Of a stretch of 64,000 bases of DNA, positions 5,453 to 61,039 are shown piece by piece (within the stretch, counting starts at the first letter, position 1; the number at the start of each line of letters is the position of its first letter). The stretch is from an uncultured Methanoregulaceae archaeon. GTDB lineage: Archaea > Halobacteriota > Methanomicrobia > Methanomicrobiales > Methanospirillaceae. The notes beneath the pieces were generated by a model, which saw only the letters and a list, made by a program, of their open reading frames with translations, was not told where the DNA came from and searched no databases. A program made the translations under genes and the position numbers. Location of the stretch: the NCBI GenBank assembly GCA_963737635.1, contig CAVTTL010000001.1, positions 160,001 to 224,000 of the forward strand. Reading direction: 5' to 3'.

Positions 5453-7198
5453 TGAACCACCACCAGGACATCGCCGTTCTGGACGACATCGCCGGTATCG
5501 ACAAAAATCTCAGTGACTTTGCCGTCAACCGGGCTGTGGATGGGGTTCTCCATCTTCATCGCTTCAAGGACGATGAGGGTATCGCCTTTTTTCACCGTCG
5601 CGCCCCGGTGAACCATGACCTGGAGCACCATGCCCTGCATATTGCTGCGGATCCCGCCGGCAATCTCGCCCCGCGGCGCTTTCTGGGGTGCTGCCCGGGT
5701 TACCTGCACCTGGTTTCCACCGACCGACACGATGCGTACCGAGAAGACTTCCCCGTCAACTTCAACTTCCATCTGGTCCGGGATACCGCCGGCAGTCGTT
5801 GCCGACTGGGCAGCTGGCAGTTTTCCGGGAATCAATTCTTGCTGGCGTTCACCTTTCAAAAACGAGGGTGCGATCGCGGGGTACATGATGTAGGTGAGCA
5901 CGTCCTCCTCTTTTTTGACGAGCCCGGCTTTTTCAGCTTCGGCTTTCATCCGATCGTAGGAGGGTTCCAACAAATCGGCAGGACGGCATACAATCGGGAC
6001 TTCGTCACCGATGATCTGGCACCGGATCGCGTCGCTGACCGGTGCCGGCGAACGGCCGTACAGATCCCCGTACGTAGTCCTTGACTTCTTTTGTCACGTT
6101 CGCGTACCGCTGGCCGTTTACGAGCACGTTCAGGACCGCCTGCGTACCAACGATCTGGCTCGTCGGTGTCACGAGCGGCGGGTAACCGAGATCCTTTCTC
6201 ACCCGCGGGATCTCGGCAAACACTTCCTCGAGCCTGTTAAGCGCATCCTGCTCCACCAGCTGCGAGACAAGGTTGGAGATCATGCCACCGGGCAGCTGGT
6301 AGATGAGGACGTCGCTGTCCACGCGCTCGGAGATAGGGTTCACCAGCCCCGCGTATTTCTCGCGGATCTGCACGCAGGTATTCCTGACAGCCCGGAGTTT
6401 GAGGAGATCGATACCAGTGTCCCGGGACGTCCCGGCTAGGGATGCCACTACACTTTCCGTCGGCGGCTGGGAGGTCCCCATCGCAAACGGCGACATGGCA
6501 GTGTCCAGGATATCTACACCGGCTTCGATGGCTGCCTGGTAACTCATGGGAGCAATCCCGCTCGTTGAGTGGCTGTGCAGGCAGACCCGGATATCGACCG
6601 CTTCTTTTATGCCGCCGATAAGCTCGCGAGCCGATTCCGGCATGATGAGCCCGGCCATATCCTTGATACAGATAGAATCGCAGTCAAGCGCGGCAAGCTC
6701 CTTCGCCATCTCGATAAACATGCCGGTGCTGTGAACCGGGCTCGTCGTATATGAGATAGTGCCCTGGAGGTGCGCCCCGGCCTTTTTTACCTGCTCCATC
6801 GAGCGTTTCATATTCCTGATATCGTTGAGTGCATCAAAGACCCGGAAGATATCCACACCGTTTTTATAGGACGCAGCAACAAAACGATCGACTACGTCAT
6901 CGGAATAGTGGCGGTACCCGACCAGGTTCTGGCCCCGGAGCAGCATCTGGATGGGAGTATGTTTCAGTTCTGTCTTGAGTGCCCGGAGCCGGTCCCAGGG
7001 ATCTTCGTTGAGGAACCGGATGGAGGTATCAAAGGTCGCCCCGCCCCATGCTTCGGCCGAGAAAAAACCGCACGCGTCAATCTCCTGTGCAAGCGGGAGC
7101 ATATCTTCGGTGCGAAGCCGGGTAGCAATGAGAGACTGGTGAGCGTCGCGAAGAGTGGTATCGGTGATAAGTAATTTGTGGGAATCGGCAGCACGCAT
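5449..7198 (-). CDS. pycB: Pyruvate carboxylase subunit B (frameshift near 6060)
   Basis: RDAHQSL, WGGATFD, CIKDMAG and biotinyl EAMKMEN; split across ORFs 6005-7198 and 5449-5973. Confidence 0.92.
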
Positions 7199-7270
7199 GA
7201 GAAACCTCGAAGGGGCTCCGGTTGTATAATTAGCCTCTCAAAACTTCATCAGGAAAGTATAAAAAATTCA

Positions 7271-7900
7271 CTAACGGAGGAGGCAGGCACAGACGAATGC
7301 TGCCGCGGCACAGGTCCCGGCAAGGATCTCGGCGGGGGGCGTGCAAAAATGCGTGCATATTGTCCCTCCGGCGCGGTACCCCCGCATGGCAAGGACTTCA
7401 GCGGTATCTTCTGCCCGCCGGAGCGTATCGCAGATAAGGATCCAGCCGACGGGCAGAATGCTTCGGATCCCCCACGGCACCCCTTTCTGCACCGACGCGA
7501 TCCGTACCCGGTAAAAATCCCCGGAGAGCCCTTGGGCCACTTCCAGCGCCATTCCGGCGATCATCCCCAGTTCGAACCCGACCCGGGTACCAAGAAGCCA
7601 GGTACCGGCGGCTAGGAAATCGCTGGCGCAGGAATCTGCATACACCCAGGTACCAACAAGCAGGATCGTGGTCATCCGGGCGAGATACGAGAGTCCGTTG
7701 CTTCCGGTAAACGCGAGAACTGCTGCCACCAGGACAAACAAGAGGAGCGTCGCAAATACTGCCCGGCGGTGCCGGATAGTCTTCCACCGGGGGGTAAATA
7801 CCAGCCACCAGGCAAAAGCCGCGGCGGCGCCGGCGATACTGATAAAGGCCGCAAGCGAGAGCAGAAACGCACAGGCAAACCTTAGTCGCGGGTCCTGCAT
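7271..7900 (-). CDS. ECF transporter transmembrane (T) component
   Basis: Hydrophobic, with RAE...LAMRGY motif; in the bioY operon. Confidence 0.75.
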   Translation of the reverse strand: MQDPRLRFACAFLLSLAAFISIAGAAAAFAWWLVFTPRWKTIRHRRAVFATLLLFVLVAAVLAFTGSNGLSYLARMTTILLVGTWVYADSCASDFLAAGTWLLGTRVGFELGMIAGMALEVAQGLSGDFYRVRIASVQKGVPWGIRSILPVGWILICDTLRRAEDTAEVLAMRGYRAGGTICTHFCTPPAEILAGTCAAAAFVCACLLR

Positions 7901-47653: not shown

Positions 47654-50143
47654 ATGGATAACAATAAACAAACCGTCTCGAAATGGGAAAACCTTTTTCA
47701 TGAGACAATTGAAAGCAGAATATTATGGAGTCTTAATAACGGTTATTTAAACTTCAATGGAAACAAAATTTCTCTCCATTCGATAAATCGCCAATCCCTC
47801 CTTTTTTTTAAAGCTGCGATGGTTAAAGAAACACCTGCACTTTTAGTATATCCTTCCTTGAAATTAACGGTCACACCACTTTTAGCACTTGAATCCCTGT
47901 ATTTTCGCATTTACGAAAAAAAACTACCCTCTGGTCGTAATCAATTGGTTGTATTCAGCAGCAGGGTCGAACTAAGAAAGGAGATCAAAGATAACTTTCT
48001 CGCTTTAAAAGTGAACACGATGCCTCTTGCCATAAATGTTTTCCCGGTTGGTAGAATCACATCTAGCGGAGATATCATTAAAATATCAAAAACAGATCTT
48101 GAACCAAAACTGCTTATCTCTACGGGGCCAGTTGCACTGCCCAATCCAGAAATCTCAAAGAAGATCTTTGGTGCAATACTTGAAGCAACTTCAGATTTGA
48201 TGGAAAATCAAGCAAAAGAAATCTTTGACTGGGGAACCAAAAACTCGGTTCCGTTCATTTTCGTTATCTCATCGGACCCTCCCACCAATCTCGCAAAATT
48301 GATGATTGAAAAAAAATATCCTTATTGGGGGTGGGATTCGGCAACATTAAATTCAGATTGTAAAATTGATGAAACAGATCTTGAAACTGGAAAATTTAAT
48401 TTCGGACAACCGTTTTGTAGAGATTATCTTGAGATTCGAACAAAAGCCAGTGGTGTAAAAAAGGTCATTGCTCCGGTTAAAGAAAAGACGTTAAATTTAA
48501 TGCTAATTGAAATTCGAAAAGACTATTATGAGTTATCTATTTCTGCAAAATCACTTAATTTATCGGCAGCTAGCGATATAGCGAGACGTTTTCTTGGATG
48601 CATTTATGGTCTCGAAGAGATGACATCCCCAATTGACTACGCAGAATTTGAATTATCTAAACGATGGGGTACAATCCCATTGAAGGAGAGGATCATTGCT
48701 TTGAGAAATCAATGCTCTGCAATAAATGCAGAAAACCCACTCTTCGCTTCTTTTGCAACTCGTTCGTCTGATAAGCTTATTGATATCTATAAATATTTGG
48801 CTGAAAAAAAGACCGGCAAGCATTTGATAATACTTCAGATTATTAAGGAAGCGCTAATTAATAAAAAAACCGTCCTTTTCATTACAAAAAATGAGGCTCT
48901 CAATGAAGCGCTGAAAAAGTATCTGAAAAATGAGAGAGATTTGGATATTTCTCATCTAAAAAAACTGCATATCGTTTTTCTTGCGGCCAGCAGAATTTAT
49001 AAAAGCACCGAAGAACAGCAATTATTTGACACATGTATTTTATACGGTTGCCCCCGCTACTATCAAAAAGACATTTTCTCATATGCACGAGCTCGCCGCG
49101 TAGGAATTATTGCATATGAATCAGAAATACCTGCGATAAAATACATTCAAAATGAAATAGATCAAGTTCAAAATTACTTCTCGGACGCTTCGAAAACAAG
49201 TATTGTAAAGAGACTAACCGGCAGTGTGCCAAAAGAAACAGCTTTAGCGGTTAAACCAGCTCAAGAATTAATTAAAACCGAATTAATATTTATTAGTCCC
49301 CAAGATGCTGAAATGGGGGATATTTCGCCTGAGTCGATACTAACGAATTTTTTATCGTTAGATTGGGCGGTTGATTTTGAATGCCTAACTGAAGCTGAAG
49401 CCAAATCGGTAGATGAGAGGCTAAAAAAAGACTTTTCGAATCCAACGAAAGCTGTAATGATTAAGTTGCAACGCGGGAGACATATTTTTCTCCACGAAGA
49501 GAAACCAATTCAAATATACGACGATTCAACGGAGAAGGTTAAAGACCGTTTGGCGAAGAATCTAAAAAAAGGAGAATTTCTTATTCTTGTTGAGGATTCA
49601 ACTCGCAAATCTCTTGCTCAATCCGTCATAAGCAAAGTTAAATCACACCCCTCTATGATGAAAGTAGTGGTGTATCAGAAAGCTTGGTCATTTTATCTCA
49701 AACAGGCCCTTGAAGAGAGTCAGGACAGTTTTCTCGATGTAATTGAAAAACTTCACAATCGAGGAGCTGGTGAGCCAAATACGGCAATGTCAATATACCA
49801 ATGGATGAGCGGCGTAATTCTCGGACCCGGTGATTTAGAGAACATTAGGCGCATCGGCGAAATATATGATAAACCGTTTTTAGTGAATAATTACAAAGAA
49901 ATCATTGGAGCAATTTTACGGCTTCGGACGATTCACCGAAGTCTTGCAAAGCGTTTAAACAGATTAATACCTTTTGCAGGTATTGAAGCGGACAGAGGGA
50001 GGATTGAAAATGCAGTGATAGATGAGGAACTAGATCTTTATTTAGAAGATTTTGTAAACGTTGTCTCAGTTGAGCGTATCGAATCTGCAGAAATTGTTGA
50101 AATGTCTTCAGATAAAGTTCTTGACAGAGTAGTTTCAAATTAG
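47654..50143 (+). CDS. drmE: DISARM class 2 DrmE-like protein
   Basis: 829 aa, first gene before drmAB, degenerate helicase-like segments. Assigned mainly by context. Confidence 0.65.
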   Translation: MDNNKQTVSKWENLFHETIESRILWSLNNGYLNFNGNKISLHSINRQSLLFFKAAMVKETPALLVYPSLKLTVTPLLALESLYFRIYEKKLPSGRNQLVVFSSRVELRKEIKDNFLALKVNTMPLAINVFPVGRITSSGDIIKISKTDLEPKLLISTGPVALPNPEISKKIFGAILEATSDLMENQAKEIFDWGTKNSVPFIFVISSDPPTNLAKLMIEKKYPYWGWDSATLNSDCKIDETDLETGKFNFGQPFCRDYLEIRTKASGVKKVIAPVKEKTLNLMLIEIRKDYYELSISAKSLNLSAASDIARRFLGCIYGLEEMTSPIDYAEFELSKRWGTIPLKERIIALRNQCSAINAENPLFASFATRSSDKLIDIYKYLAEKKTGKHLIILQIIKEALINKKTVLFITKNEALNEALKKYLKNERDLDISHLKKLHIVFLAASRIYKSTEEQQLFDTCILYGCPRYYQKDIFSYARARRVGIIAYESEIPAIKYIQNEIDQVQNYFSDASKTSIVKRLTGSVPKETALAVKPAQELIKTELIFISPQDAEMGDISPESILTNFLSLDWAVDFECLTEAEAKSVDERLKKDFSNPTKAVMIKLQRGRHIFLHEEKPIQIYDDSTEKVKDRLAKNLKKGEFLILVEDSTRKSLAQSVISKVKSHPSMMKVVVYQKAWSFYLKQALEESQDSFLDVIEKLHNRGAGEPNTAMSIYQWMSGVILGPGDLENIRRIGEIYDKPFLVNNYKEIIGAILRLRTIHRSLAKRLNRLIPFAGIEADRGRIENAVIDEELDLYLEDFVNVVSVERIESAEIVEMSSDKVLDRVVSN

Positions 50144-50152
50144 GGTGATTTT

Positions 50153-53100
50153 GTGGTTGAATGTACTGGTGCAAATAACATTGTAAGAGGGAAATTCGTA
50201 AAGAAAATCCTTGAAAATATCCGATCTGTTGCTGATGGTTCAGCTTTCGATAGAGTCCTCGATGAAAAACCATCGAAAAAATTATTTATAGGTAACCTTA
50301 GTCCAAAAAAGAAATTGTCTGAAGTATCGTATATTTACTCAAAAACTGCTCCTTCGTCAGTTGGATTTGATGTTTTACTGTCTAAAAAAAATGCCGAAAA
50401 TGACAAAATTCGAATTAAAGTGAAGATTGCGTTCTATTATAAGGTTTTTCCAACTCGAGAGGAGCAAAAAGAGGTTTTCAAACAGCAGGATGAAGGGATA
50501 TATAGTCGAGATTCTTCCGGAATGGACTTGGAATTTGATGGCGAAAAAAGTGATTCATCTGACTCAGGTTACCGTCTTCGGACCGCATATGTAAAGACTA
50601 AACCAATTGAAATAGAAATTAACAAAAAAATCTCCGATTTAATTAACAAAGATTTGAATGGTTCTGGCCGTTTTCCCGAAGCTGATCGAATCGTCGCAAA
50701 AGCTAAAGAGGTTTTTAATAATGATTCGAATCGCTTCCGTTCTTCGAGAAATTCCGGTTTGAGCAGCGAATCAAGACATAAAGAGCCAAATGTTCCAAGA
50801 ATCGCGTTAGCGACAGCGGAATCCTGGCAAGATTTTATCCAGAAATGGGGGGAAAGAATTCCCGAACCCAAATGGAATGTTCAGATTTCATACAAAATAG
50901 CAGAATTCAATAATGACATCATTAAATTAACACTCATCGTTGAGAATGCACTTGAGGAGAACCAGGAAAAACAAGATATTGAAAATTCATTATTTGAGAC
51001 GGCTCTTTCCGTTGAGCCTATAGGTTTTGCTTTTAAGGACTATGTCCTCGAATATCTCAAAGACGACTATAAATATGACGGCAATATCCACGCTAGTGGA
51101 ATTAACTGTTCTACAGTGAAAGATGGCAATATTATCCGCATTGAACATATGCCGATTTTTATTCAGAAAAAATACAAATCAACCCAGTATGTCGATCCAA
51201 ATTTTAATATCTTATCAATGAATCCTGTACCCCTTTTAAAAACACTTTCTGACTTGATGGTCACAGAAATCAATGATCTTGAACAGAAGTTTAAGCAACG
51301 GATCGATTTAACAGATCAGGCTCGAAACCTCTTTAGAAAGGATATTAACGATTTTAAAGGAGAGGTGAGACGGTTTAATGATGGGATCGCTTGCCTTGAG
51401 AACGACCCTCAAGCGATGGAAGCGTTTTCATTAATGAATAAAGCATTTGCACAATCTAGTAAAGGTTTCTCATCTTGGCGTCTTTTTCAAATTGCATTTA
51501 TCGTAATGGAGATTCCAGATATTTTAACAGCATCTGGCAGAGGAAGTTCGACTACTTTAGGAGATGTCGATTTAATTTACTTCCCCACTGGCGGAGGGAA
51601 AACTGAGGCATATCTGGGTCTTGTGGTATTCACAGTTTTTTTTGATCGATTACGAGGGAAGAAGGAGGGTGTATCCGCAATCACGAGATTCCCTCTTAGA
51701 CTACTTTCACTTCAACAGCTTCAGAGAATTGCTGACATATTCGCAAAGGCAGAGATACTGAGAAGACGGCATCCGATAATTGGTTCAGCTGGATATGCTC
51801 CGTTCAGCACAGGATATTATGTCGGAAAAGATAATACACCGAATGAAGTCTATAAGGCAGGTTACCGAGAGAAAGAAACAATAGATGAAATTACACCGAT
51901 AAACACTGATTTAGATAGACAAGAGATATATAAAATCATTTCAACATGTCCTTTCTGCGGTCACGAATCGATTTCGATTCGAGGAGATCTCCCCTCACTT
52001 CGAATAATCCACCAATGTACTAATCCGAACTGTAAAGAAGAAATTCCCGTCTACATATCCGATCATGAAGTTTATCGGTATTTGCCGACATTCATCATTG
52101 CAACACTGGATAAAATGGCATCTGTTGGGTGGAGTAAAGAATTCAAGACTATTTTTGGTTCTGTATCCGGCAAATGCCCAAAACATGGTTTCTTTACCGG
52201 AGATCATTGTCTATATTGGAAAAAAAGCTATGATAAAGAAGATCCGAATCTATGTCAGATAGAAAAATACATTCCAGTAAAACTGTTTGACCCTGTCCCC
52301 ACTCTTATAATTCAGGATGAAATGCATTTAATACGGGAATCGCTTGGCACATACGATTCTCATTACGAGACGTTCATTGAACATTATACAAAAGAACTCT
52401 CTGGAGGCAAACTTGTAAAAATTATCGGCTCTTCTGCAACAATGACTGAATATTGGGGGCAGATTCGCCAGCTTTATATGAAAAATGGGCATCAATTTCC
52501 CTCAAATCGACATTTTTATGCTTGTGAGGATGATAATGAGACCTCCCGCTTAATCACCGGAATTATGCCCCACAACAAAACGGTAATTTTTGCAGTTTTA
52601 GATCTCATCGAAATGTATTATGAAGCAATCCATGACTTAAAAGAAAATCCCTCAAAAGCCCTCGCTATGAATGTAGGTTTTACGTCGACTGAAGAGGTAA
52701 TCCGAACTCTTAATGATTATGATCTCGGCTTAAGCTATAATTTAGTAAAATTAGAGGGGGATGCAATAAGCCAATCGATTCGGACCATGGTAAACGTTGA
52801 TCTTAAAAAAAGAAATATTCGCGAAATGTGCCCGGTAAAGATGACCGGAGATGTCACATTTCGTGACGTAAAAGACATCCTAAAAACAGTGGAGAGTAAC
52901 AATCCAAACAGTCATCTGGATTTGATTGTTGCCACGAGCATGATATCTCACGGTGTAGATATTGACAAAATGAATTATATGGTGTTCCGAGGCATGCCTA
53001 GAAACACCGCTGAATACATTCAAGCATACAGTCGGGTCGGAAGAAAATACCCTGGAATTATTTTTGTTGTTTTCAATCCAGCACGGGAGCGGGATCAAAG

Positions 53101-53584
53101 TTATTATAAGTATTTCACAAAATACCATGAATTTAAAGATATTCTTGTCGAGCCAGTTCCTTTGAATAGATGGGCAAAATTCGCAGTCAATAGGACTCTA
53201 CCCGGTATTTTCTCAGCCTATATTTTGAATTTTGTGAAAGATGAACATGGAAAAAGCCCATATATGACCAACACTTTTCGCGAGGCGATAGCCTCGCAGA
53301 CAATCACTGTTGATCAGATTACCAAATTTATCCTATCTTGCTATCAATGCAACGATCAAGATATGGGCCCATATTATCAGGATTACATTAGAAACAAGGT
53401 TATAAATTATGTCGACCGAATCCTTGCACATGACGGGAAGCCGGCTTTTATTCCAATGATTATGGCAGAAAAGCCGCTTACGAGCCTTAGAGATATGGAT
53501 ATACCAATTGAAATTTATCCGACGCGCGAAAGCTATCATCCAATGACTATGGTTCATGCACAATATTCACGGAGTGTTGAATAA
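50153..53584 (+). CDS. drmA: DISARM SF2 helicase DrmA
   Basis: FPTGGGKTEAY, PLRLLSLQQ, IIQDEMH, ATSMISHGVDI, YIQAYSRVGR. Confidence 0.9.
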   Translation: MVECTGANNIVRGKFVKKILENIRSVADGSAFDRVLDEKPSKKLFIGNLSPKKKLSEVSYIYSKTAPSSVGFDVLLSKKNAENDKIRIKVKIAFYYKVFPTREEQKEVFKQQDEGIYSRDSSGMDLEFDGEKSDSSDSGYRLRTAYVKTKPIEIEINKKISDLINKDLNGSGRFPEADRIVAKAKEVFNNDSNRFRSSRNSGLSSESRHKEPNVPRIALATAESWQDFIQKWGERIPEPKWNVQISYKIAEFNNDIIKLTLIVENALEENQEKQDIENSLFETALSVEPIGFAFKDYVLEYLKDDYKYDGNIHASGINCSTVKDGNIIRIEHMPIFIQKKYKSTQYVDPNFNILSMNPVPLLKTLSDLMVTEINDLEQKFKQRIDLTDQARNLFRKDINDFKGEVRRFNDGIACLENDPQAMEAFSLMNKAFAQSSKGFSSWRLFQIAFIVMEIPDILTASGRGSSTTLGDVDLIYFPTGGGKTEAYLGLVVFTVFFDRLRGKKEGVSAITRFPLRLLSLQQLQRIADIFAKAEILRRRHPIIGSAGYAPFSTGYYVGKDNTPNEVYKAGYREKETIDEITPINTDLDRQEIYKIISTCPFCGHESISIRGDLPSLRIIHQCTNPNCKEEIPVYISDHEVYRYLPTFIIATLDKMASVGWSKEFKTIFGSVSGKCPKHGFFTGDHCLYWKKSYDKEDPNLCQIEKYIPVKLFDPVPTLIIQDEMHLIRESLGTYDSHYETFIEHYTKELSGGKLVKIIGSSATMTEYWGQIRQLYMKNGHQFPSNRHFYACEDDNETSRLITGIMPHNKTVIFAVLDLIEMYYEAIHDLKENPSKALAMNVGFTSTEEVIRTLNDYDLGLSYNLVKLEGDAISQSIRTMVNVDLKKRNIREMCPVKMTGDVTFRDVKDILKTVESNNPNSHLDLIVATSMISHGVDIDKMNYMVFRGMPRNTAEYIQAYSRVGRKYPGIIFVVFNPARERDQSYYKYFTKYHEFKDILVEPVPLNRWAKFAVNRTLPGIFSAYILNFVKDEHGKSPYMTNTFREAIASQTITVDQITKFILSCYQCNDQDMGPYYQDYIRNKVINYVDRILAHDGKPAFIPMIMAEKPLTSLRDMDIPIEIYPTRESYHPMTMVHAQYSRSVE

Positions 53585-55413
53585 TGAAGCGTGGAAAAAG
53601 TCAGGTCCTTTTTCGATATTTACCTGAATGTATCATAGATCATTCCGATTCACAGGCTATCGTAAAGATCATCTCATGGGATGCCGTTAAATCTGAAACA
53701 ATTAACGAATCGCGATTATCTTCAGAAGTGATTAGGAGACTTGATCGATTCAATAGAAAACATGGCTTTCCTACAACACCTCGTCCGGAATCGTTTGTCT
53801 TTCTTGAGCCAAAGTCGATCGATGTAGAATTATTTCCCCTAACTTTTGTCTGCAATAACTGTGGCAAATCTTATTCTTTTGACAATATTAGCCAATTTAC
53901 ACACCATTTCGGGGCTGCCGGATACCATTGTTCGTGCGGCGGGAATCTGCGACAACTGGATATGATTAATTATCATAAATGTGGAAAAATGTCCGGCCTA
54001 AAAATTCGGCCCTGCCCTACTCACGGCTTTCAGTTTATCCAACTTCAAACTAACAATAGCAGCCGAACCTCAAATTGGAGATGGAGATGTAATATTTGTG
54101 GGCGTGAAACAGGCGATGTATCTGAATGGTGTAGCGAATGCAAGCAACCAATGGAAACTGCCCCTTTCAGAAAAAGTCAGGTATTCTACCCTCATTCAAT
54201 ATCACTGATCAATACTGGAGGGATAGGCAAATTAGTAAACTATAGCGATTCAGATCTGCTAAAACTCTACATCGCGCAATACCTCGGAATGATCTCCAAA
54301 GAAAAATATCTGGAATATCGTGATTCTTCAAAAGATAATGAACGGAAAAAGAACGCCGAGAAAATACGTCAAGAATTGCTCGCGAAGGGTTTTCCGGAAG
54401 CCCTCATTAGCGCCGCCGTTGGGGCGGTTGAAGGTTCAGAGGACCATAAAAAACGCCAAGAAATTATTATGAATATAAACAAAGGTCTTGGCGTTGAGGG
54501 CGATGCTTTGGTGTCTTTAGTTTCATCATTGCAAAGTTTTCAGGATGCAGTAAATCTTCCCGAAACAAAAAATTTAAAAAATGTAATGGATGAAGCAAAA
54601 GTAAGGAATGATCCCAATTATAGACAGATCACTGAATTTCCGAAAGCCTTGGAGATGGCAGGGATAAATGAAGCGTACGTTGTAAGCGACCTTCCAGTAG
54701 TATCAGCTGTTTTTGGCTATTCGCGATCAACGCCAAACCCCGCTGAGTGTACATTGAGAGGATTTAATTTTGACAGGAAATATGAGGATAAAACTCCTAT
54801 TTATGTAAATCCGACGGAAACTGAAGGAATAATAATTGTATTCGATCGATGGAAGATACTCCGTTGGATGCAGGAAAATCAATTTGTATTCGAAATCCCC
54901 GATAAGAATGATGCACAGGGATTGAAGCAATGGTTCTTGCAAAAGATCAGATCTAACGAAATTCCAATTTATGATGAAATTCCTAACGTTCAGGCAGAAA
55001 CCAAAATGGTTTATTCGTTGATTCATACACTATCTCATATACTTATAAAAAACGCTGCGGGACTCGTGGGCATGGATAAGGACTCTCTTGCCGAAATCAT
55101 TTTTCCAACAGTGCCCGCTATTGTAATTTACACCAATAATGCTCATGATTTTCAGATCGGTGGAATGCATACGCTGTTCGAAACTGGAATTATTCCCTGG
55201 ATTAATATGGCATTTGAAAATGTTGAGACCTGCCTTTATGATCCAGTTTGCATTTCTTCAGAAGCATCTTGCCATGCCTGTCTCCATATCAGCGAAATAT
55301 CCTGTGCACATTTCAACAGAGATCTCGGGCGACATTATTTAATTGGGCGAGAAGATGAGCATGGCCGGTTACTAGGCTTTTGGGAGCGCGAATTTCTTAG
55401 AAGGCTGAAATAA
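53584..55413 (+). CDS. drmB: DISARM DrmB (DUF1998)
   Basis: HTLSHILI, CLYDPVC, CHACL..SE.SC..FN..L.R. Confidence 0.9.
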   Translation: MKRGKSQVLFRYLPECIIDHSDSQAIVKIISWDAVKSETINESRLSSEVIRRLDRFNRKHGFPTTPRPESFVFLEPKSIDVELFPLTFVCNNCGKSYSFDNISQFTHHFGAAGYHCSCGGNLRQLDMINYHKCGKMSGLKIRPCPTHGFQFIQLQTNNSSRTSNWRWRCNICGRETGDVSEWCSECKQPMETAPFRKSQVFYPHSISLINTGGIGKLVNYSDSDLLKLYIAQYLGMISKEKYLEYRDSSKDNERKKNAEKIRQELLAKGFPEALISAAVGAVEGSEDHKKRQEIIMNINKGLGVEGDALVSLVSSLQSFQDAVNLPETKNLKNVMDEAKVRNDPNYRQITEFPKALEMAGINEAYVVSDLPVVSAVFGYSRSTPNPAECTLRGFNFDRKYEDKTPIYVNPTETEGIIIVFDRWKILRWMQENQFVFEIPDKNDAQGLKQWFLQKIRSNEIPIYDEIPNVQAETKMVYSLIHTLSHILIKNAAGLVGMDKDSLAEIIFPTVPAIVIYTNNAHDFQIGGMHTLFETGIIPWINMAFENVETCLYDPVCISSEASCHACLHISEISCAHFNRDLGRHYLIGREDEHGRLLGFWEREFLRRLK

Positions 55414-55556
55414 TGGTCTATCTAATAGCCGCCAATATCACAATGCATTGTTTAAAAAATAATTTTGAAATTGACGTTATTCTCAAAGGGGCAATAGTGA
55501 GACCTCTTTCTGGCATTACTGCTCATGTAGGGGCAACTTGGTTCATGTCGATTTAG
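55413..55556 (+). pseudogene. Relic of drmC phospholipase-D nuclease
   Basis: MVYLIAANITMHCLKNNFEIDVILKG resembles the PLD tail YxGSANxT..GL..NxE.G; occupies the drmC position. Confidence 0.6.
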
Positions 55557-55595
55557 ATAAAGAGAAAATCATTTGAAAACAATGGATGAAGGAAC

Positions 55596-56760
55596 ATGGC
55601 TGAATTAAAAAACGGCATCTTAGATATTTTCTGCGGAGCTGGGGGCCTTAAGCTTAGGATTCCTTCTTGAAGGATTTGACGTTGTTTATTCGAGCGATAG
55701 CAATTCGAGGGCAATAGAAACGATAGAATACAATCATAAGAAAATTCATTTAGCTAAAGAGGAGGAGAATTATCATTGTACTGATGTTGAAGATATTAAT
55801 GGGCTCAATCCACGAAAAGTCAGAAAAATATTTCGAGAACGTGGTTATCGTATTCAAGGGATTATAGGTGGGCCGCCGTGTCAAGGCTTCTCAGTAGCAA
55901 ACAAAAAGACACGCACAATAGACAATCCCGCAAATTCCCTCTTCAGACAATATCTGAGATTAATCGGGGATCTGCATCCAGATTTTATTGTATTTGAAAA
56001 TGTTGTTGGCTTTTTATCTATGGCTGACGGGGAATTCAAAGAGACAATACTAACAACTTTACGTGATCTGAACTATGTGGCTGATTGTAGAGTCCTAGAT
56101 TCCCATTGGTATGGTGTTCCTCAAACCCGAAGGCGTGTAATTATCATTGGAATTAAACGTTGCAAAGTGAAAAAAGACTATAAGGAAAAGATCGAATTCC
56201 CAGAGAAAAAAGTAGATTCTGCACCAACTGTTAAAAATGCTTTTTCTGGCCTCCCAAAGATTAAGATGGGAGAGACTTGCGAAATTCAATCCTATAGACC
56301 CGGACGCATGAGTCGCTACGCAAAAGCATTGCGGTCATCCCCGGAAGTGAAGCTTTCATCGGATAATGTATTAAATCATGTTACAACATTAAGTAACAAT
56401 TTGGTTCTTAAACGGTATAAAATTCTGAAGCAAGGACAAAATTGGGAAAATCTTCCTAAAAGACTTCTCAAGAACTATGACGCTGATAATCGCAAGCATT
56501 CATATATCCATTCCTATATCTACAAACGTCTAGAGGAAGATAAACCCAGTATAACTGTGAGCGATTTCCGCAAATGCATGTTCATCCATCCCAGTGAGGA
56601 TCGAGGATTGTCCGTTCGAGAAGCGGCACGACTCCAATCATTTCCTGACTGGTATGAATTTAAAGGTGAATTGGGCAACAAACAGCAGCAGGTTGCCTGT
56701 GCTGTTCCTCCACTAATGGCGAGGGAAATTGCGAAAGCAATAAAGAAGATGCTAAAGTAA
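55596..56760 (+). CDS. drmMII: DNA cytosine-C5 methyltransferase DrmMII (frameshift near 55647)
   Basis: DIFCGAGG, GGPPCQGFS, ENV, PQTRRR, REAARLQSFPD. Confidence 0.88.
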
Positions 56761-56770
56761 TTCCTCTCTT

Positions 56771-57178
56771 ATGACTGACTGTTACCCAAAAGAAGTGAGA
56801 AGCAGAGTGATGTCAAACATCAAATCAAAAAATACCAAACCTGAAGTTTTACTGAGGAAATGCCTTTGGAATCAAGGATATCGAGGCTATAGAATACATA
56901 ACAAGACTCTGCCAGGGAAACCAGATATTGTATTCAAGAAACAGAAAATTGCAATTTTTATCGACGGATGTTTCTGGCATAAATGCCCCTTAGATTTTCA
57001 GACGCCAAAAACTAATACAAAATACTGGATAAGAAAGATTGAAATAAATGTCGAACGGGATAAAAAAGTCAATGAGGAGCTACGAAGGGAGGGTTGGATT
57101 GTCGTCAGGATTTGGGAACATGTAGTAAAGAAGGACCCTCAAAATGCTATTGATAAAATCATTCCATTTTTTGATTGA
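56771..57178 (+). CDS. vsr: Very short patch repair endonuclease
   Basis: RSRVMSNIKSKNTKPE, PGKPD, IDGCFWH, IWEH. Confidence 0.95.
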   Translation: MTDCYPKEVRSRVMSNIKSKNTKPEVLLRKCLWNQGYRGYRIHNKTLPGKPDIVFKKQKIAIFIDGCFWHKCPLDFQTPKTNTKYWIRKIEINVERDKKVNEELRREGWIVVRIWEHVVKKDPQNAIDKIIPFFD

Positions 57179-57301: not shown

Positions 57302-58240
57302 TTATGACTCGTAATCGAATTCAATAATATAAAGCCAACTTTTTTCATATCCTTGAGAAGCTTTTGAATTATATTCCATTGGATATGGGTATATTACTCG
57401 ACATTCAGGATTTTCTAATACAAATAAAAAACAACCCAATGCCATTGGTTTGGTACTTAATGGAGTGTACTGAGATATTATATCGTTTTTTCCGCTCTTT
57501 ATAAATTTGTATTAATTCGTTTCTTGTTTCAAAAGGATCGTTGAAGGGGGCATAGCTGAGATTTTTTACAGTTTGACTCTCTTTTAATATTTCATCATTT
57601 AATAGTAGACAAATATCTTTGAATTCAGGTCGATAGCTTGGAAATCCGTTAATTGGAATCGTTACTTCAGGATTGATTTCATTTGTAACTTCTTTTGCTC
57701 TTTGGCCTTCACCCCCCAATAAAATAATCAATGCGTCGTCCTTTGTAGAATTCTGACACCCAGAAAATGATAGCATATCTTTCGGAGGGGTATTACTTCC
57801 CCGTGTAAAATATGGATCATCATGCTGCTTTTTCTGAATGTCATATGTCTTTGGCTCAGTATAGAGCAAAAATATCTTTTTAATTCTTTTATATACAATA
57901 AGAAATTTCAATAAAATAAAAAAGTAAGGTTTAACCATTACAGAAAAGTCAAGAATTATTGATAATTGATCAAGATCTTTGTACTCTGAATCTATAAATT
58001 CCATAAATGATTCTAATCCAGTAGACTCATCCATCATTTTAACAAATAATTGTTTATCATTTTCATTAAAATCAAAAATTGAGTTAAAATAAGCAATATT
58101 TCGTGATCTTGTTACATTATCTTCAAAAGATTCTTTTCTATCAACTACTTCATTGAAAAAAAAGAGAACTTTCTTTTTCACATTAATATCAGATGATTTT
58201 AATAAATTCCAACCAACTGGACACCGTTCTTCGGAATCCT
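57302..58240 (-). CDS. Uncharacterised two-Rossmann (CARF-like) protein (frameshift near 57470, N-terminus truncated)
   Basis: EERC, LDFSVMVK, LYTEP..Y, LLGGEG.RA, GFPSYRPE; corrected tail TPLSTKPMALG...YPYP..Y...SQG. Confidence 0.55.
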
Positions 58241-60152
58241 GCCTCGCGTATTATAAGATATTGAAAATTTTGGAGATAGAATGTGATTTAAGACATAGAC
58301 ATCTAACAACGGAGATCCTGGCTTTTTCCCTCTCATCGGTTCTTTTTGTTGCAATATCGACCATTGAACTGCTTTATCCAAAACATCTTTTACTTTAGGA
58401 GATAATGTTGTTTTGTCGACGTAAAAATATGTAACTTCAGGTTCGCTAATCCTCGGATCGGAATACCACGAGGAAAAAATTGCTCCCAAAGATTGAGTTA
58501 AGGATTTAATTTCATTACCATATTCTGGAATGTTTTCGATACTCTTGAAAAATTTTTCTGAACGAATATTTGCAGATTTTGTCTGAAGTTCAAAGTCGAT
58601 ACATTTATTCTTAATCACAGAGCCAGAGGCATAAAAAAAATCGTTTTTAAAACTTTGATAACATAATTCAATAAAATTACGAATTAATCCTGATGAAAGT
58701 TGTCCGAATACCTGGAAGCCGGCATATTCTTTTTGTGTTGGGGGATAATAGGAAATTCAGCTGAAATACTAATGCTAATTTATTTTTGCTATAAAGATCA
58801 TCATATGTTTTTATAATTTCCGATTCAGCATTGGAAGGGGAGCCTTTTTTCTGTTTCAAATATGACTGAGTGATTATCTGTAATTCATCGAGTGAATATT
58901 TCCCTCTGATAATTAGAACCATGCTAAGGATATCAATAAGCGGATTATCAATAGAGATCAAATTTTTCAAAATTGTATCTACATTATTCAGATTATCATT
59001 TTTAATCCGAACAGATAAAATTTCGTGTAATTTTACAACATGCTTTTTTTTCTTATACGTATCAAAATCACAACTTGTATCTTTGTTATTTTCTTTTCCA
59101 AATACAATTTTTCGGGCTTCCATCTCTGGAGTTAATTTTCCCAAAATTTTCTCTATATCGTAATTATTACGATTTTTAAATATTTCCCTTTCTTCCAATC
59201 GCTTATCAGCGATAGCTCGAATAAATCGAAAATAATCTTTGTCTGATACAACATCTTCAAAAGAAATTGTTCTAAAATCTGCATCCTCCATTAAAAATTC
59301 ATCTTTATTCATTGTGTCGAAGGTTTTTAAACCGTAAAATCTGCTACCGATAACAAAAGTAACGGGAGGTTGAACATGCTTAATAAGAGTATTGATAATC
59401 AATTGCTGCATTCTCGATGCATTTTCATATTCGTCTAGTAAAATTACGAATTTTTTCCGTTTAAACGAAGGGATAATATTATTAATTATTTTAGGAACGC
59501 CAAATATCAAATACCCAGACGAAAAAATAAATTCGGATTCAAATTTGGGGTTTTTATTAAACGGAGCATTGTTAATAAACTTAAAAACTTTCTTTGACAA
59601 TGACTCTAACTTTTCAATAAGAATTTCGAAGGATGTATCTCCAATATCCGACTCCGATGACTCAAAAATATATTTATCAAGATCGCGAATCAATTTTTTA
59701 ATCGTATTTTCGTCAACATCCAAATATTCATTTGCTTTAAGATTTTCTAGCATTTGGACATATTTTTTACAAATCACTATTTCCATGTAATGTTTAAATA
59801 TAGTCTCCCATTCAGTATCACCAAGGTTTCGTTTTTCAAAGATTGAAAGCGATGGGCCATCAAATCTATTATAAACCCCAATATAATGCAAATTTGCTAG
59901 AAAATCATTTTTTGAAATATTATCAATTTTTGATCTTTTAATTTGAATTTCATTTGACATATATTTAAGAATCATTGTTTTTCCGCAGCCTCTCCCACCC
60001 ATGAAAAATATCGGAGGTGAAGATATCAATTCAGCTCCATTCTGTATCAAATCAGAAAGAGGACCTGGAGTAATCCAAAATCTTATAATTTCGTCATCTT
60101 CCATGAGATTTGCGTTGAAGCCTGCAAACGGATTAACCATTCTTTCTGCCAT
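58199..60152 (-). CDS. ORC/CDC6-like (STAND-related) AAA+ ATPase (frameshift near 58760)
   Basis: NPF..NA, GGRGCGKT, ILLDEYEN; continues YAGF..F..LSSG.IRNFIELC into ORF 58199-58618. Confidence 0.75.
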
Positions 60153-60154
60153 AT

Positions 60155-61039
60155 TTAGCTCCAATACTTTTTTCTTCTTCTAGGAAATATCGGAACCCAA
60201 TCTTTATTACTAGACCAAATAACTGGAAGTGTGTTATTAGGAATGTTATGATGTAATCCTATAAGAAGTTCTGAATTTTTATATCCCAAAGCATACATAT
60301 CTCCCTCTAAAAAAATTCCGATTTTTTGACACGTGATCTGTGCTATTTTCATATCTGATGCTGAATAACCTGATAATATCTTTGTGTCGGGAGAAAATAC
60401 TTTATACTCTTGAGGTATCATCTCGGCATAAATCAACTTACAATTTGCATCAGATGACTGGATTTTTTTTAAACCTAATTCTGTAACTATCAAAGATAAA
60501 TAGTAAATTTGGATTTTTGGAAATTTTGTAAAAATTCCTGCATTTTTCAAGGATTGGTTAAATTTTAATACCGTATCACCAGTACCAATAAAATCATCAA
60601 CAAAAATCAATGTCTGCGCATCTGGTTTGATTTCATCAATTGAATTAATGAAAATATCTAATGGAAGATCATGAATTTGTCTAAACAGATATGCAAAATG
60701 CGCGCTACTATCTCCATTTTTTCCAATAAATTGTATTTTATTTATTGAGTCATTAAAAGATTTTTCGGCGTCTTTAATCGATATCCCCGTTAGTATTTTT
60801 TCTTTTATCATCTGTCGTTTATATTCAGAGAATGCATGTTTGCATAAATATTTAATTTCAGATTCATTATAATAGATAAATCCAAGTAATAAGTCCATTG
60901 CTAATTGTCGAACATTAATATTTTTTTGAGGTTTGAAATTTTTTATCCAGTCTTCAACATCCTGTTTTGAAATACGCCTCTCCCAAACTACTTCGTTGAC
61001 ATCATTGCAATATTGGAAAAATTTTTCTTCGTCGATCAT
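60155..61039 (-). CDS. Phosphoribosyltransferase-fold protein (conflict-system type)
   Basis: PRPP loop IFVDDFIGTGDT; C-terminal LGY...HNIPNNTLPVIW...W.PIFPR. Confidence 0.75.
   Translation of the reverse strand: MIDEEKFFQYCNDVNEVVWERRISKQDVEDWIKNFKPQKNINVRQLAMDLLLGFIYYNESEIKYLCKHAFSEYKRQMIKEKILTGISIKDAEKSFNDSINKIQFIGKNGDSSAHFAYLFRQIHDLPLDIFINSIDEIKPDAQTLIFVDDFIGTGDTVLKFNQSLKNAGIFTKFPKIQIYYLSLIVTELGLKKIQSSDANCKLIYAEMIPQEYKVFSPDTKILSGYSASDMKIAQITCQKIGIFLEGDMYALGYKNSELLIGLHHNIPNNTLPVIWSSNKDWVPIFPRRRKKYWS

Follow-up and report, generated by a model that had tools for sequence, protein, structure and literature searches.

A conserved phosphoribosyltransferase, ATPase and tandem CARF gene cassette with a linked DNA methylase, a candidate defence system represented by a damaged copy in an uncultured Methanoregulaceae archaeon

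This study concerns a gene cassette in a 64,000-nucleotide stretch of DNA, referred to as the window in the following, from an uncultured Methanoregulaceae archaeon (assembly GCA_963737635.1, contig CAVTTL010000001.1, positions 160,001 to 224,000 of the forward strand). The cassette appears in the open reading frame (ORF) list of the window as three co-oriented groups of ORFs on the minus strand, which extend from 61039 to 57305 and encode, in this order, a phosphoribosyltransferase (PRTase), an ORC-CDC6-like AAA+ ATPase and a protein with two CARF domains, here called gene 3 (Table 1). With a GC content of 30.4%, this trio differs from the neighbouring part, which encodes components of the defence island system associated with restriction-modification (DISARM; 38.4%), and from positions 1-47000 of the window (52.4%). 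It converges on plus-strand genes for a Vsr endonuclease, a C5 methylase and the DISARM proteins DrmE, DrmA and DrmB. A preliminary description of the locus had portrayed it as three co-oriented, AT-rich genes converging on DISARM, and the ORF list, the base composition and the PADLOC matches of the neighbours agree with this portrayal; each of the motifs quoted at the time, VDDFIGTG, DFSVMVK and PLSTKP, was located in the window proteins.

The PRTase is encoded by an intact gene. Its residues 28-287 align to positions 1-253 of 253 in the Pfam family PRTase-CE (PF24390; E 3.2e-51, 175.1 bits at a cut-off of 27), and hence to the complete domain, and it is matched by the PRTase_III-A profiles of PADLOC (4.3e-40). 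In an alignment of 44 sequences, D149 of the loop that binds phosphoribosyl pyrophosphate (PRPP) is invariant and D148 nearly so, and in the region of the IPNNTLP motif, N265, P267 and L271 are invariant (alignment A4); this region resembles the 'PNNxP' motif described for retron PRTases (PMC12746101). We modelled the window protein with AlphaFold2 (predicted local distance difference test score, pLDDT, 93.4) and used the model in fold searches. The best matches were type I PRTases, led by uracil phosphoribosyltransferase (UPRTase; Z 10.9, 144 residues, root mean square deviation, rmsd, 3.6). The top 37 VIA rows are all PRTase-fold proteins, namely type I PRTases, PRPP synthetases and PRTase-fold regulators, and the top 13 Foldseek rows are all UPRTases. 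A sequence profile search of the PDB returned no real relatives of the PRTase, only chance hits besides weak matches to UPRTase and HGPRT. By its modelled core fold and its conserved acidic PRPP loop, the protein is a type I PRTase with a predicted enzymatic activity, and the loop is as intact as the preliminary description had stated.

The second gene is spread over two frames, both of which match the Pfam family ORC-CDC6-like (PF24389): the frame 60164..58677 covers profile positions 1-349 (E 1.3e-70, 239.2 bits, cut-off 27) and the frame 58618..58199 positions 448-569 (E 4.4e-22, 79 bits). For comparison, the intact ATPase of a syntenic locus in a Methanoregula metagenome-assembled genome, L002, matches positions 1-569 of 571 with 364.5 bits. 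G51, G52, G56 and K57 of the Walker A motif (GGRGCGKT) and D237 and E238 of the Walker B motif (LLDEYEN) are invariant in alignment A5. These motifs and the Pfam match corroborate the earlier assignment to the ORC/CDC6-like ATPases. The intact ATPase matched none of the PADLOC families at 1e-5, the BrxC models included, and the PDB sequence profile search found no real relatives for it. A match to the PADLOC profile 'CARF6--CARF_STK_AAA' was considered as evidence of a fusion and rejected as too weak (E 2.4e-4, 16.9 bits).

Gene 3 comprises an ORF at 58181..57405 in the window and a tail in another frame that reaches to 57305. It has no match to a Pfam family and is matched by the PADLOC profile 'CARF6--CARF_CARF_CARF' (PDLC01922, 1.9e-35); we take it to be a CARF6 protein, a label that follows the name of this profile. 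Conserved loops are found in both halves of the protein: D126, K132 and P133 of the N-terminal loop are invariant or nearly so, and P291, G293, K295, P296 and M297 of the C-terminal loop are invariant. Since the copy in the window is truncated, we modelled an intact relative in its place, which is 71% identical, from an alignment of 28 sequences (pLDDT 82.0, predicted template modelling score 0.87). We searched this model against representative structures with a tool whose best score is typically Z 7-8 where there is no clear match. All CARF matches exceed this level: Can1 scored best (Z 13.1; 237 residues over both halves, rmsd 3.9), followed by Csm6 (Z 12.8), Can2 (Z 12.1 and 11.3), Cam1 (Z 11.2) and Card1 (Z 11.0). 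SAVED domains, the fused pseudo-dimers of CARF-like domains known from Cap4, Cap5 or CalpL, ranked below the CARF proteins (Z 7.5-8.6, about 195 residues), and Foldseek gave a concurring picture with matches to Cam1, Csm6, Cap5 and tandem universal-stress proteins.

With these structural matches, of which that to Can1 extends across both halves, gene 3 is best described as two CARF domains in one chain without a fused effector. This is the predicted fold of its intact relatives, for which ligand binding is likewise a prediction. The third protein had originally been described as having two Rossmann-like halves with CARF-like loops, and both the PADLOC profile and the fold searches sustain this description. 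Further searches with gene 3 added little: the PDB sequence profile search yielded no real relatives, a protein atlas search returned only unnamed clusters, and a phage collection contained no match to the gene 3 protein of locus L040.

A predicted complex supports, rather than shows, that the ATPase binds the tandem CARF protein. For this prediction, residues 20-672 of the L002 ATPase were combined with the tandem CARF protein, using separate alignments of 43 rows. The pair scored 0.80, and the best of three controls 0.00. Among solved complexes, 58 of 80 attain this score mark, as against 2 of 110 among mismatched pairs; these counts hold only roughly here, as custom alignments were used. 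The individual runs agree in at least 87% of the contacts, with a partner pLDDT of at least 79. The confident contacts connect the inter-domain loop of the CARF protein (residues 183-197) and the adjoining helices to the N-terminal domain of the ATPase, where they include positions adjacent to the Walker A motif (53, 58) and to the Walker B motif (238). We know of no solved complex of an ATPase and a CARF protein of this kind. The preliminary description had assigned the third protein a role downstream of the PRTase, as a sensor or degrader of its product. The complex model does not support this order, as it places the CARF protein on the nucleotide-binding domain of the ATPase and thereby upstream of the PRTase.

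To judge how far the cassette is conserved, we collected 84 loci by searching with gene 3, 4 of them from species-representative genomes and 80, the best of 115 relatives, from metagenomes, and scored the gene order with local profiles for which the four genome loci served as the source. Where the sequence upstream of gene 3 reaches 3 kb or more, the PRTase, the ATPase and gene 3 follow each other in this order on one strand in 56 of 56 loci, and the ATPase is present in all 74 loci with at least 300 nucleotides of upstream sequence. The order holds down to a gene 3 identity of 27%, so the operon postulated from the window is strictly conserved. In L067, the PRTase and the ATPase are encoded by a single ORF. 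In the distant relatives found in three genomes of the same genus, the ATPase lies directly upstream of gene 3, and a weak match to an N6/N4-type methylase lies downstream.

The family of gene 3 is large and spans archaea and bacteria. Among 1.84 billion representatives, its profile matches 3511 at E<=1e-3, 228 at E<=1e-30 and, at an intermediate threshold of E<=1e-10, 2108 representative clusters; nearly all of the matched proteins are stand-alone and about 310-340 residues long. The family also occurs on plasmids of cultured rhizobia. Carriage is patchy, with 6 of the 301 genomes of the class, the window's own included, and 4 of the 68 other genomes in the genus. On the conjugative plasmid NZ_CP085526 of Sinorhizobium meliloti, thyX, a DNA methyltransferase, the PRTase-CE protein, the ORC-CDC6-like protein and gene 3 are encoded consecutively, and RefSeq labels all three trio proteins 'hypothetical protein'. 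On the Burkholderia gladioli plasmid NZ_CP023524 (L093, 562-6573), the trio comes right after a pair of genes for a DUF4433 (DarT-like) and a macro-domain (DarG-like) protein.

The conserved unit is larger than the trio. For the counts that follow, the 84 loci were grouped into 73 clusters at 90% gene 3 identity; the tallies were made with local hidden Markov models over all ORFs of all 84 loci, and the Pfam scans extended to 264 of the 285 ORFs in the flanks. Where at least 1.2 kb of sequence precedes the PRTase, a DNA methyltransferase is found in 41 of 42 clusters, and in 33 of the 42 it lies immediately upstream in the same orientation. These methylases match PADLOC MTase_II best and are small, type II-like enzymes. 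A thymidylate synthase, ThyX or ThyA, occurs in 36 of the 56 clusters whose downstream sequence reaches 1 kb or more, and in 30 of the 56 it follows directly. ThyX passes the thyX equivalog cut-off of NCBIfam, and in L083 and L021 its place is taken by the unrelated ThyA. The ThyA of L021 shares a single ORF (6037-7416) with an MtrA-like domain (tetrahydromethanopterin methyltransferase subunit A), which stands at the usual place of ThyX. The preliminary description was limited to the trio; the trio is indeed conserved, but the unit takes in a DNA methyltransferase as well and, in most clusters, a thymidylate synthase.

The methylases of the clusters fall into a C5 type and an N6/N4 type, and two further observations depend on this division. 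A MutY/Mig-like HhH-GPD glycosylase or a Vsr protein accompanies 19 of the 22 C5-methylase clusters and none of the 27 N6/N4 clusters. This distribution fits the repair of deaminated 5-methylcytosine, so the repair genes probably lie outside the core mechanism. Likewise, a quick tree of gene 3 separates into two clades with a support of 100, which match the methylase type. The tree requires 4 label changes, compared to a mean of 16.6 after shuffling, and none of 200 shuffles reached this value. The match between the clades and the methylase type indicates that the methylase has been co-inherited with the trio over long periods, while shared ancestry alone can also yield such a pattern.

The remaining neighbours bear out the defence setting that had been proposed from the window: across the loci they are of the kinds typical for defence islands and mobile elements and include parts of DISARM, TIR, GmrSD, AbiJ and AbiE genes, ParE and MazEF pairs, integrases and transposases. 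Six loci (L002, L007, L012, L027, L039 and L070) have PLD-like or DrmE genes at a distance of up to 3.5 kb from the trio, and Mrr-like genes are found in few loci only. In the window as well as in L002, L007 and L012, the methylase at the DISARM end is the sole methylase nearby, and this C5 enzyme is probably shared between DISARM and the trio.

We then examined the state of the window copy by tblastn, with the proteins of L002 as queries, and aligned short-read contigs of independent public runs (X3, X4 and X6) to the window, to which they are otherwise identical; a further run, X1, which may be a source of the DNA, contributed no contig. The PRTase is complete, ThyX is missing from the locus, the ATPase is recovered in two frames as residues 1-465 and 454-632 of 672, and gene 3 as residues 32-300 and 290-341 of 343. 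An extra base marks precisely each of the three frameshift sites, one per gene: base 58758 in the ATPase is absent from the X3 and X4 contigs, base 57467 in gene 3 is absent from the X3 contig, with which the loose ends of X4 and X6 concur, and base 55650 in the methylase is absent from the X4 contig. Since independent contigs lack these bases, the three frameshifts are either errors of the assembly or variants private to it. We therefore reject the notion of a locus riddled by three true frameshifts, and likewise a gene 3 frameshift placed in the A7 homopolymer near 57490, as the extra base sits at 57467. Single-base assembly errors may also account for the completeness estimate of 90% for this genome, which consists of four contigs.

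The junction at 58233/58232 is a different case. There, DNA alignment with L007, L002 and L006 reveals that about 225-231 nucleotides are missing, and the X3, X4 and X6 contigs cross the junction without any difference from the window, which makes a deletion of about 230 nucleotides real and shared. It removes the last ~40 codons and the stop codon of the ATPase, along with the start and the first ~31 codons of gene 3, and fuses the 3' end of the ATPase to about codon 32 of gene 3. In the model of the intact relative, the deleted codons correspond to the first strands and the helix of the N-terminal CARF half. As the original start is deleted and the next in-frame start is only found in a GTG at 58181, gene 3 is probably dead in the window. 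The cassette has also lost ThyX, and since the deletion takes away the end of the ATPase gene and the beginning of gene 3, the copy as a whole is probably inactive.

For the window, and for the window only, we lean towards regarding the copy as a dead remnant without present function. Besides the deletion, which is common to the independent contigs, this is suggested by the absence of ThyX at the locus and of any Thy1 (ThyX) match in a profile search of the window's genome (90% complete), and by the remnants of DrmC (PLD) and of an Mrr-like gene nearby. On the other hand, the PRTase is intact, the ATPase retains its whole Pfam domain once the extra base is removed, and L007 likewise lacks ThyX yet has an intact gene 3. 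Furthermore, the locus is identical in several independent samples, so either the decay is recent or selection is ongoing. The proposal of a candidate defence system, made from this copy, would apply to the cassette, which is real and conserved, and less to the window copy, which lacks the start of its CARF gene and is probably nonfunctional.

Table 1. Features of the cassette and its surroundings in the window
Feature	Position	Strand	Basis
PRTase-CE phosphoribosyltransferase, 294 aa, intact	60155..61039	-	Pfam PF24390, PADLOC PRTase_III-A, AlphaFold2 model
PRPP-binding loop VDDFIGTG, residues 147-154	60578..60601	-	motif and alignment
IPNNTLP motif	60224..60244	-	resembles 'PNNxP' of retron PRTases
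ORC-CDC6-like AAA+ ATPase, two frames	58199..60164	-	Pfam PF24389, tblastn with L002
ATPase Walker A GGRGCGKT	59976..59999	-	motif and alignment A5
ATPase Walker B LLDEYEN	59421..59441	-	motif and alignment A5
Deletion junction, about 225-231 nucleotides lost	58232..58233	-	DNA alignment, tblastn, independent contigs
Tandem CARF gene 3 remnant, about residues 32-341 of 343-aa relatives	57305..58232	-	PADLOC CARF6, alignment, fold of relative
DFSVMVKP loop, N-terminal CARF half	57927..57950	-	conserved residues
PLSTKPMA loop, C-terminal CARF half	57440..57463	-	conserved residues
C5 cytosine DNA methyltransferase, DrmMII type of DISARM	55596..56760	+	tblastn, PADLOC
Vsr T:G mismatch endonuclease	56771..57178	+	PADLOC Vsr 7.7e-24, tblastn
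Mrr-like gene remnant, last 35 codons	61150..61254	-	tblastn with L002, residues 120-154 of 154

What might the cassette do where it is intact? The conserved methylase and the usual thymidylate synthase shift its reading towards the logic of restriction-modification and of bacteriophage exclusion (BREX) systems. Domain identities, operon conservation, the co-occurrence and co-inheritance of the methylase and the predicted folds are direct results of our analysis; building on them, we infer a defence function that involves a reading of methylation status, and with it a PRTase reaction, a CARF ligand and a role for ThyX. We see an even chance that the cassette is a methylation-linked defence system of the abortive type. 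In such a system, the methylase would mark the host's own DNA, and the ATPase and the tandem CARF protein would together form a sensor and switch, whose CARF domains would lie on the nucleotide-binding domain of the ATPase and bind a nucleotide ligand. Once an invader is detected, the switch would release the PRTase. This putative effector might consume PRPP or distort the pyrimidine nucleotide pool and thereby abort the infection, and ThyX might buffer or complement the thymidylate supply.

Several elements of this scheme have been described in other systems. Retron-Eco11 employs a PRTase effector of the PRTase-CE_3 type (PMC13712802), and its activation is described as lowering PRPP by about half (PMC12746101). 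Likewise, the toxicity of ShosT is described as dependent on PRPP binding (PMC12961424), and methylation-based BREX systems as anchored by ATPases of the ORC/Cdc6 clade (PMC12839542). A bolder version of the scheme, which we regard as rather unlikely, would be a nuclease-free epigenetic immunity: a CARF-clamped ATPase would read invader DNA without the methyl mark of the cassette, or a nucleotide signal that the PRTase makes from PRPP, and activate a UPRTase-like enzyme that poisons the pyrimidine/PRPP pool, whereas the thymidylate synthase of the cassette would shield the deoxythymidine monophosphate of the host.

A number of observations weigh against a methylation-linked defence system. The copy in the window is itself damaged. 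The conserved core showed neither a nuclease nor any other known component of restriction systems; a nuclease domain may be hidden in the C-terminal part of the ATPase. The cassette includes no known cyclase for a CARF ligand. Solved structures of ShosT or retron effectors are not among the fold matches listed for the PRTase. In 20 of the 56 clusters whose downstream sequence is 1 kb or longer, ThyX was not found, and we have no convincing role to offer for it; on the Burkholderia plasmid, neither a methylase nor ThyX is among the listed genes, in a gene table that is incomplete. The adjacency of the methylase could in part reflect the clustering of genes in defence islands, and the loci are kin, so their counts overstate independence. 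Finally, an apparent fusion of methyltransferase and PRTase in a single ORF in L051 may be an indel error; it is given no weight, as the two genes are separate in its 90% twin L050.

Two other interpretations of the intact cassette deserve a closer look. In the first, which we consider unlikely, the cassette is a pathway that modifies DNA or nucleotides: its methylase and ThyX, together with the uracil-PRTase-like enzyme and the glycosylase, would make or install a modified pyrimidine, the ATPase and the CARF protein would act as loader or regulator, and protection would come from the DNA modification in place of abortive infection. It is appealing that the accessory genes are all base or nucleotide enzymes (methyltransferase, ThyX or ThyA, HhH-GPD and at times thymidylate kinase in L004, dUTPase in L068 or a dCTP-deaminase-like protein in L015), and that the nearest solved folds of the PRTase are those of uracil PRTases. 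Yet the chemistry of the methylase differs between the clades, C5 in one and N6/N4 in the other, whereas the trio and ThyX stay constant, and HhH-GPD or Vsr proteins come with C5 methylases only, as expected from 5-methylcytosine deamination repair. Moreover, the 264 scanned flank ORFs contain no kinase/transferase set of the hypermodification type, and the PRTase belongs to a family of toxic effectors.

Equally improbable, in our assessment, is that the cassette is primarily an addiction module of mobile elements, in which a PRTase toxin is restrained by the ATPase-CARF pair, by the methylase or by both, and which serves to retain the element, with defence as a secondary effect. Type II methylase modules are classically addictive, and the patchy carriage described above (6 of 301 genomes of the class) as well as the occurrence on plasmids and in the company of integrases, transposases and toxin-antitoxin pairs are in keeping with such a module. 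PRTase toxins are, furthermore, described for ShosTA (PMC11961720, PMC12961424). However, five genes with an AAA+ switch and a ligand-binding CARF protein are far more elaborate than the known modules, and addiction and defence are roles compatible with each other. Very unlikely, lastly, is that the trio is an ancillary effector module whose tandem CARF protein senses cyclic oligonucleotides from type III CRISPR (clustered regularly interspaced short palindromic repeats) systems or from cyclic-oligonucleotide-based anti-phage signalling systems (CBASS): the CARF protein finds its best matches in fold among type III ancillary proteins (Can1, Csm6, Can2 and Card1) and SAVED domains, but neither a Csm1-type Cas10 (TIGR02578) nor a SMODS cyclase (PF18144) is found in the window's genome (90% complete; the Cmr2-type Cas10 was not separately searched), neither of these two families is found among the scanned flank ORFs, and the conserved partners are a methylase and ThyX.

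A methylation-linked defence system of this composition would resemble several known systems in part. Its PRTase falls into the same Pfam family, PRTase-CE, as the type III-A retron effectors such as that of Retron-Eco11 (PMC13712802), in line with the initial suggestion that it belongs to the PRTase-fold effectors of conflict systems, and it shares with them the PRTase_III-A profile match, the double aspartate in the PRPP loop and a PNN-type motif. By contrast, its partners are an AAA+ ATPase, a tandem CARF protein, a methylase and ThyX; no retron reverse transcriptase is encoded in 57305-61039, and no reverse transcriptase family is found among the scanned flank ORFs (a non-coding RNA was not searched for). 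ShosTA, described as an anti-phage system (PMC11961720, PMC12961424), likewise combines a toxic effector of the PRTase fold with a Rossmann-like partner, but the partner in the trio has a CARF fold and not that of DprA, the cassette includes an ATPase and a methylase, and PADLOC gives no match to ShosT or ShosA in the trio at E-values up to 1.

In BREX, described as an epigenetic defence (PMC12839542), a methyltransferase is similarly paired with an AAA+ ATPase of the ORC/Cdc6 clade. The methylases of the cassette, however, are small and type II-like, the PRTase, the CARF protein and ThyX are not BREX components, and PglZ, BrxL and BrxA were not seen in the scanned flank ORFs. With Can1 and, by weaker fold matches, with the SAVED receptors, gene 3 has in common two CARF-like domains per chain, and D/N-x-S...K-P loops are found in both of its halves; unlike them, it carries neither a nuclease nor another effector domain, shows no association with Cas10 or a CD-NTase in the sequences searched, and has an AAA+ ATPase as its predicted partner. 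Class 2 DISARM, finally, is the neighbour of the trio in the window and probably shares its C5 methylase with it, but in most loci the trio occurs without DISARM genes, and in the window the two differ in GC content.

Full-text literature searches found no paper that describes the trio or the five-gene cassette, where an earlier mention in a computational study is possible; the literature that names both PRTase and CARF concerns polyvalent phage proteins, jumbo phages, retrons and CRISPR-linked genes. The searches brought up no characterised system that matches the trio, for which the preliminary description had likewise known of no mechanism. The component families are already catalogued in two Pfam entries and in the PADLOC CARF6 and PRTase_III-A profiles. 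In the cassette, which is uncharacterised and linked to a methylase, an effector family and a sensor fold that are both already known are combined with an ATPase class like that of BREX. If the cassette is a defence system, it would unite epigenetic self-marking, nucleotide sensing of the CARF type and an attack on the nucleotide pool by a PRTase, which have so far been studied apart. CARF domains would then gain a role outside CRISPR and CBASS, and the thymidylate synthase that recurs beside the trio would represent a novel type of accessory gene in need of an explanation.

Beyond the cassette itself, the window contains class 2 DISARM genes at 47654-55567, namely DrmE (47654-50143), DrmA (50153-53584), DrmB (53584-55413) and a remnant of the PLD gene DrmC (55407-55567), of which about 54 codons are left in comparison to the syntenic L002. 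The adjacent C5 methylase matches PADLOC MTase_II (3.5e-56) and DrmMII (5.7e-35), and in tblastn it is covered by residues 1-20 and 16-383 of the L002 Dcm protein. On the opposite side of the trio, L002 has a whole Mrr-like gene upstream of its PRTase, an ORF that matches Pfam Mrr_cat, and the Mrr-like remnant found there in the window is another sign of decay at the edge of the island; past 61300, the GC content rises to about 48%.

Individual loci have further genes of nucleotide metabolism beside the cassette. These are a thymidylate kinase in L004 (7734-8471), a dUTPase in L068 (7783-8163), a dCTP-deaminase-like gene together with a HAD hydrolase in L015 (4282-5013) and, in L043 (9096-10031), a PRPP synthetase, which may simply be a neighbouring gene of the host.

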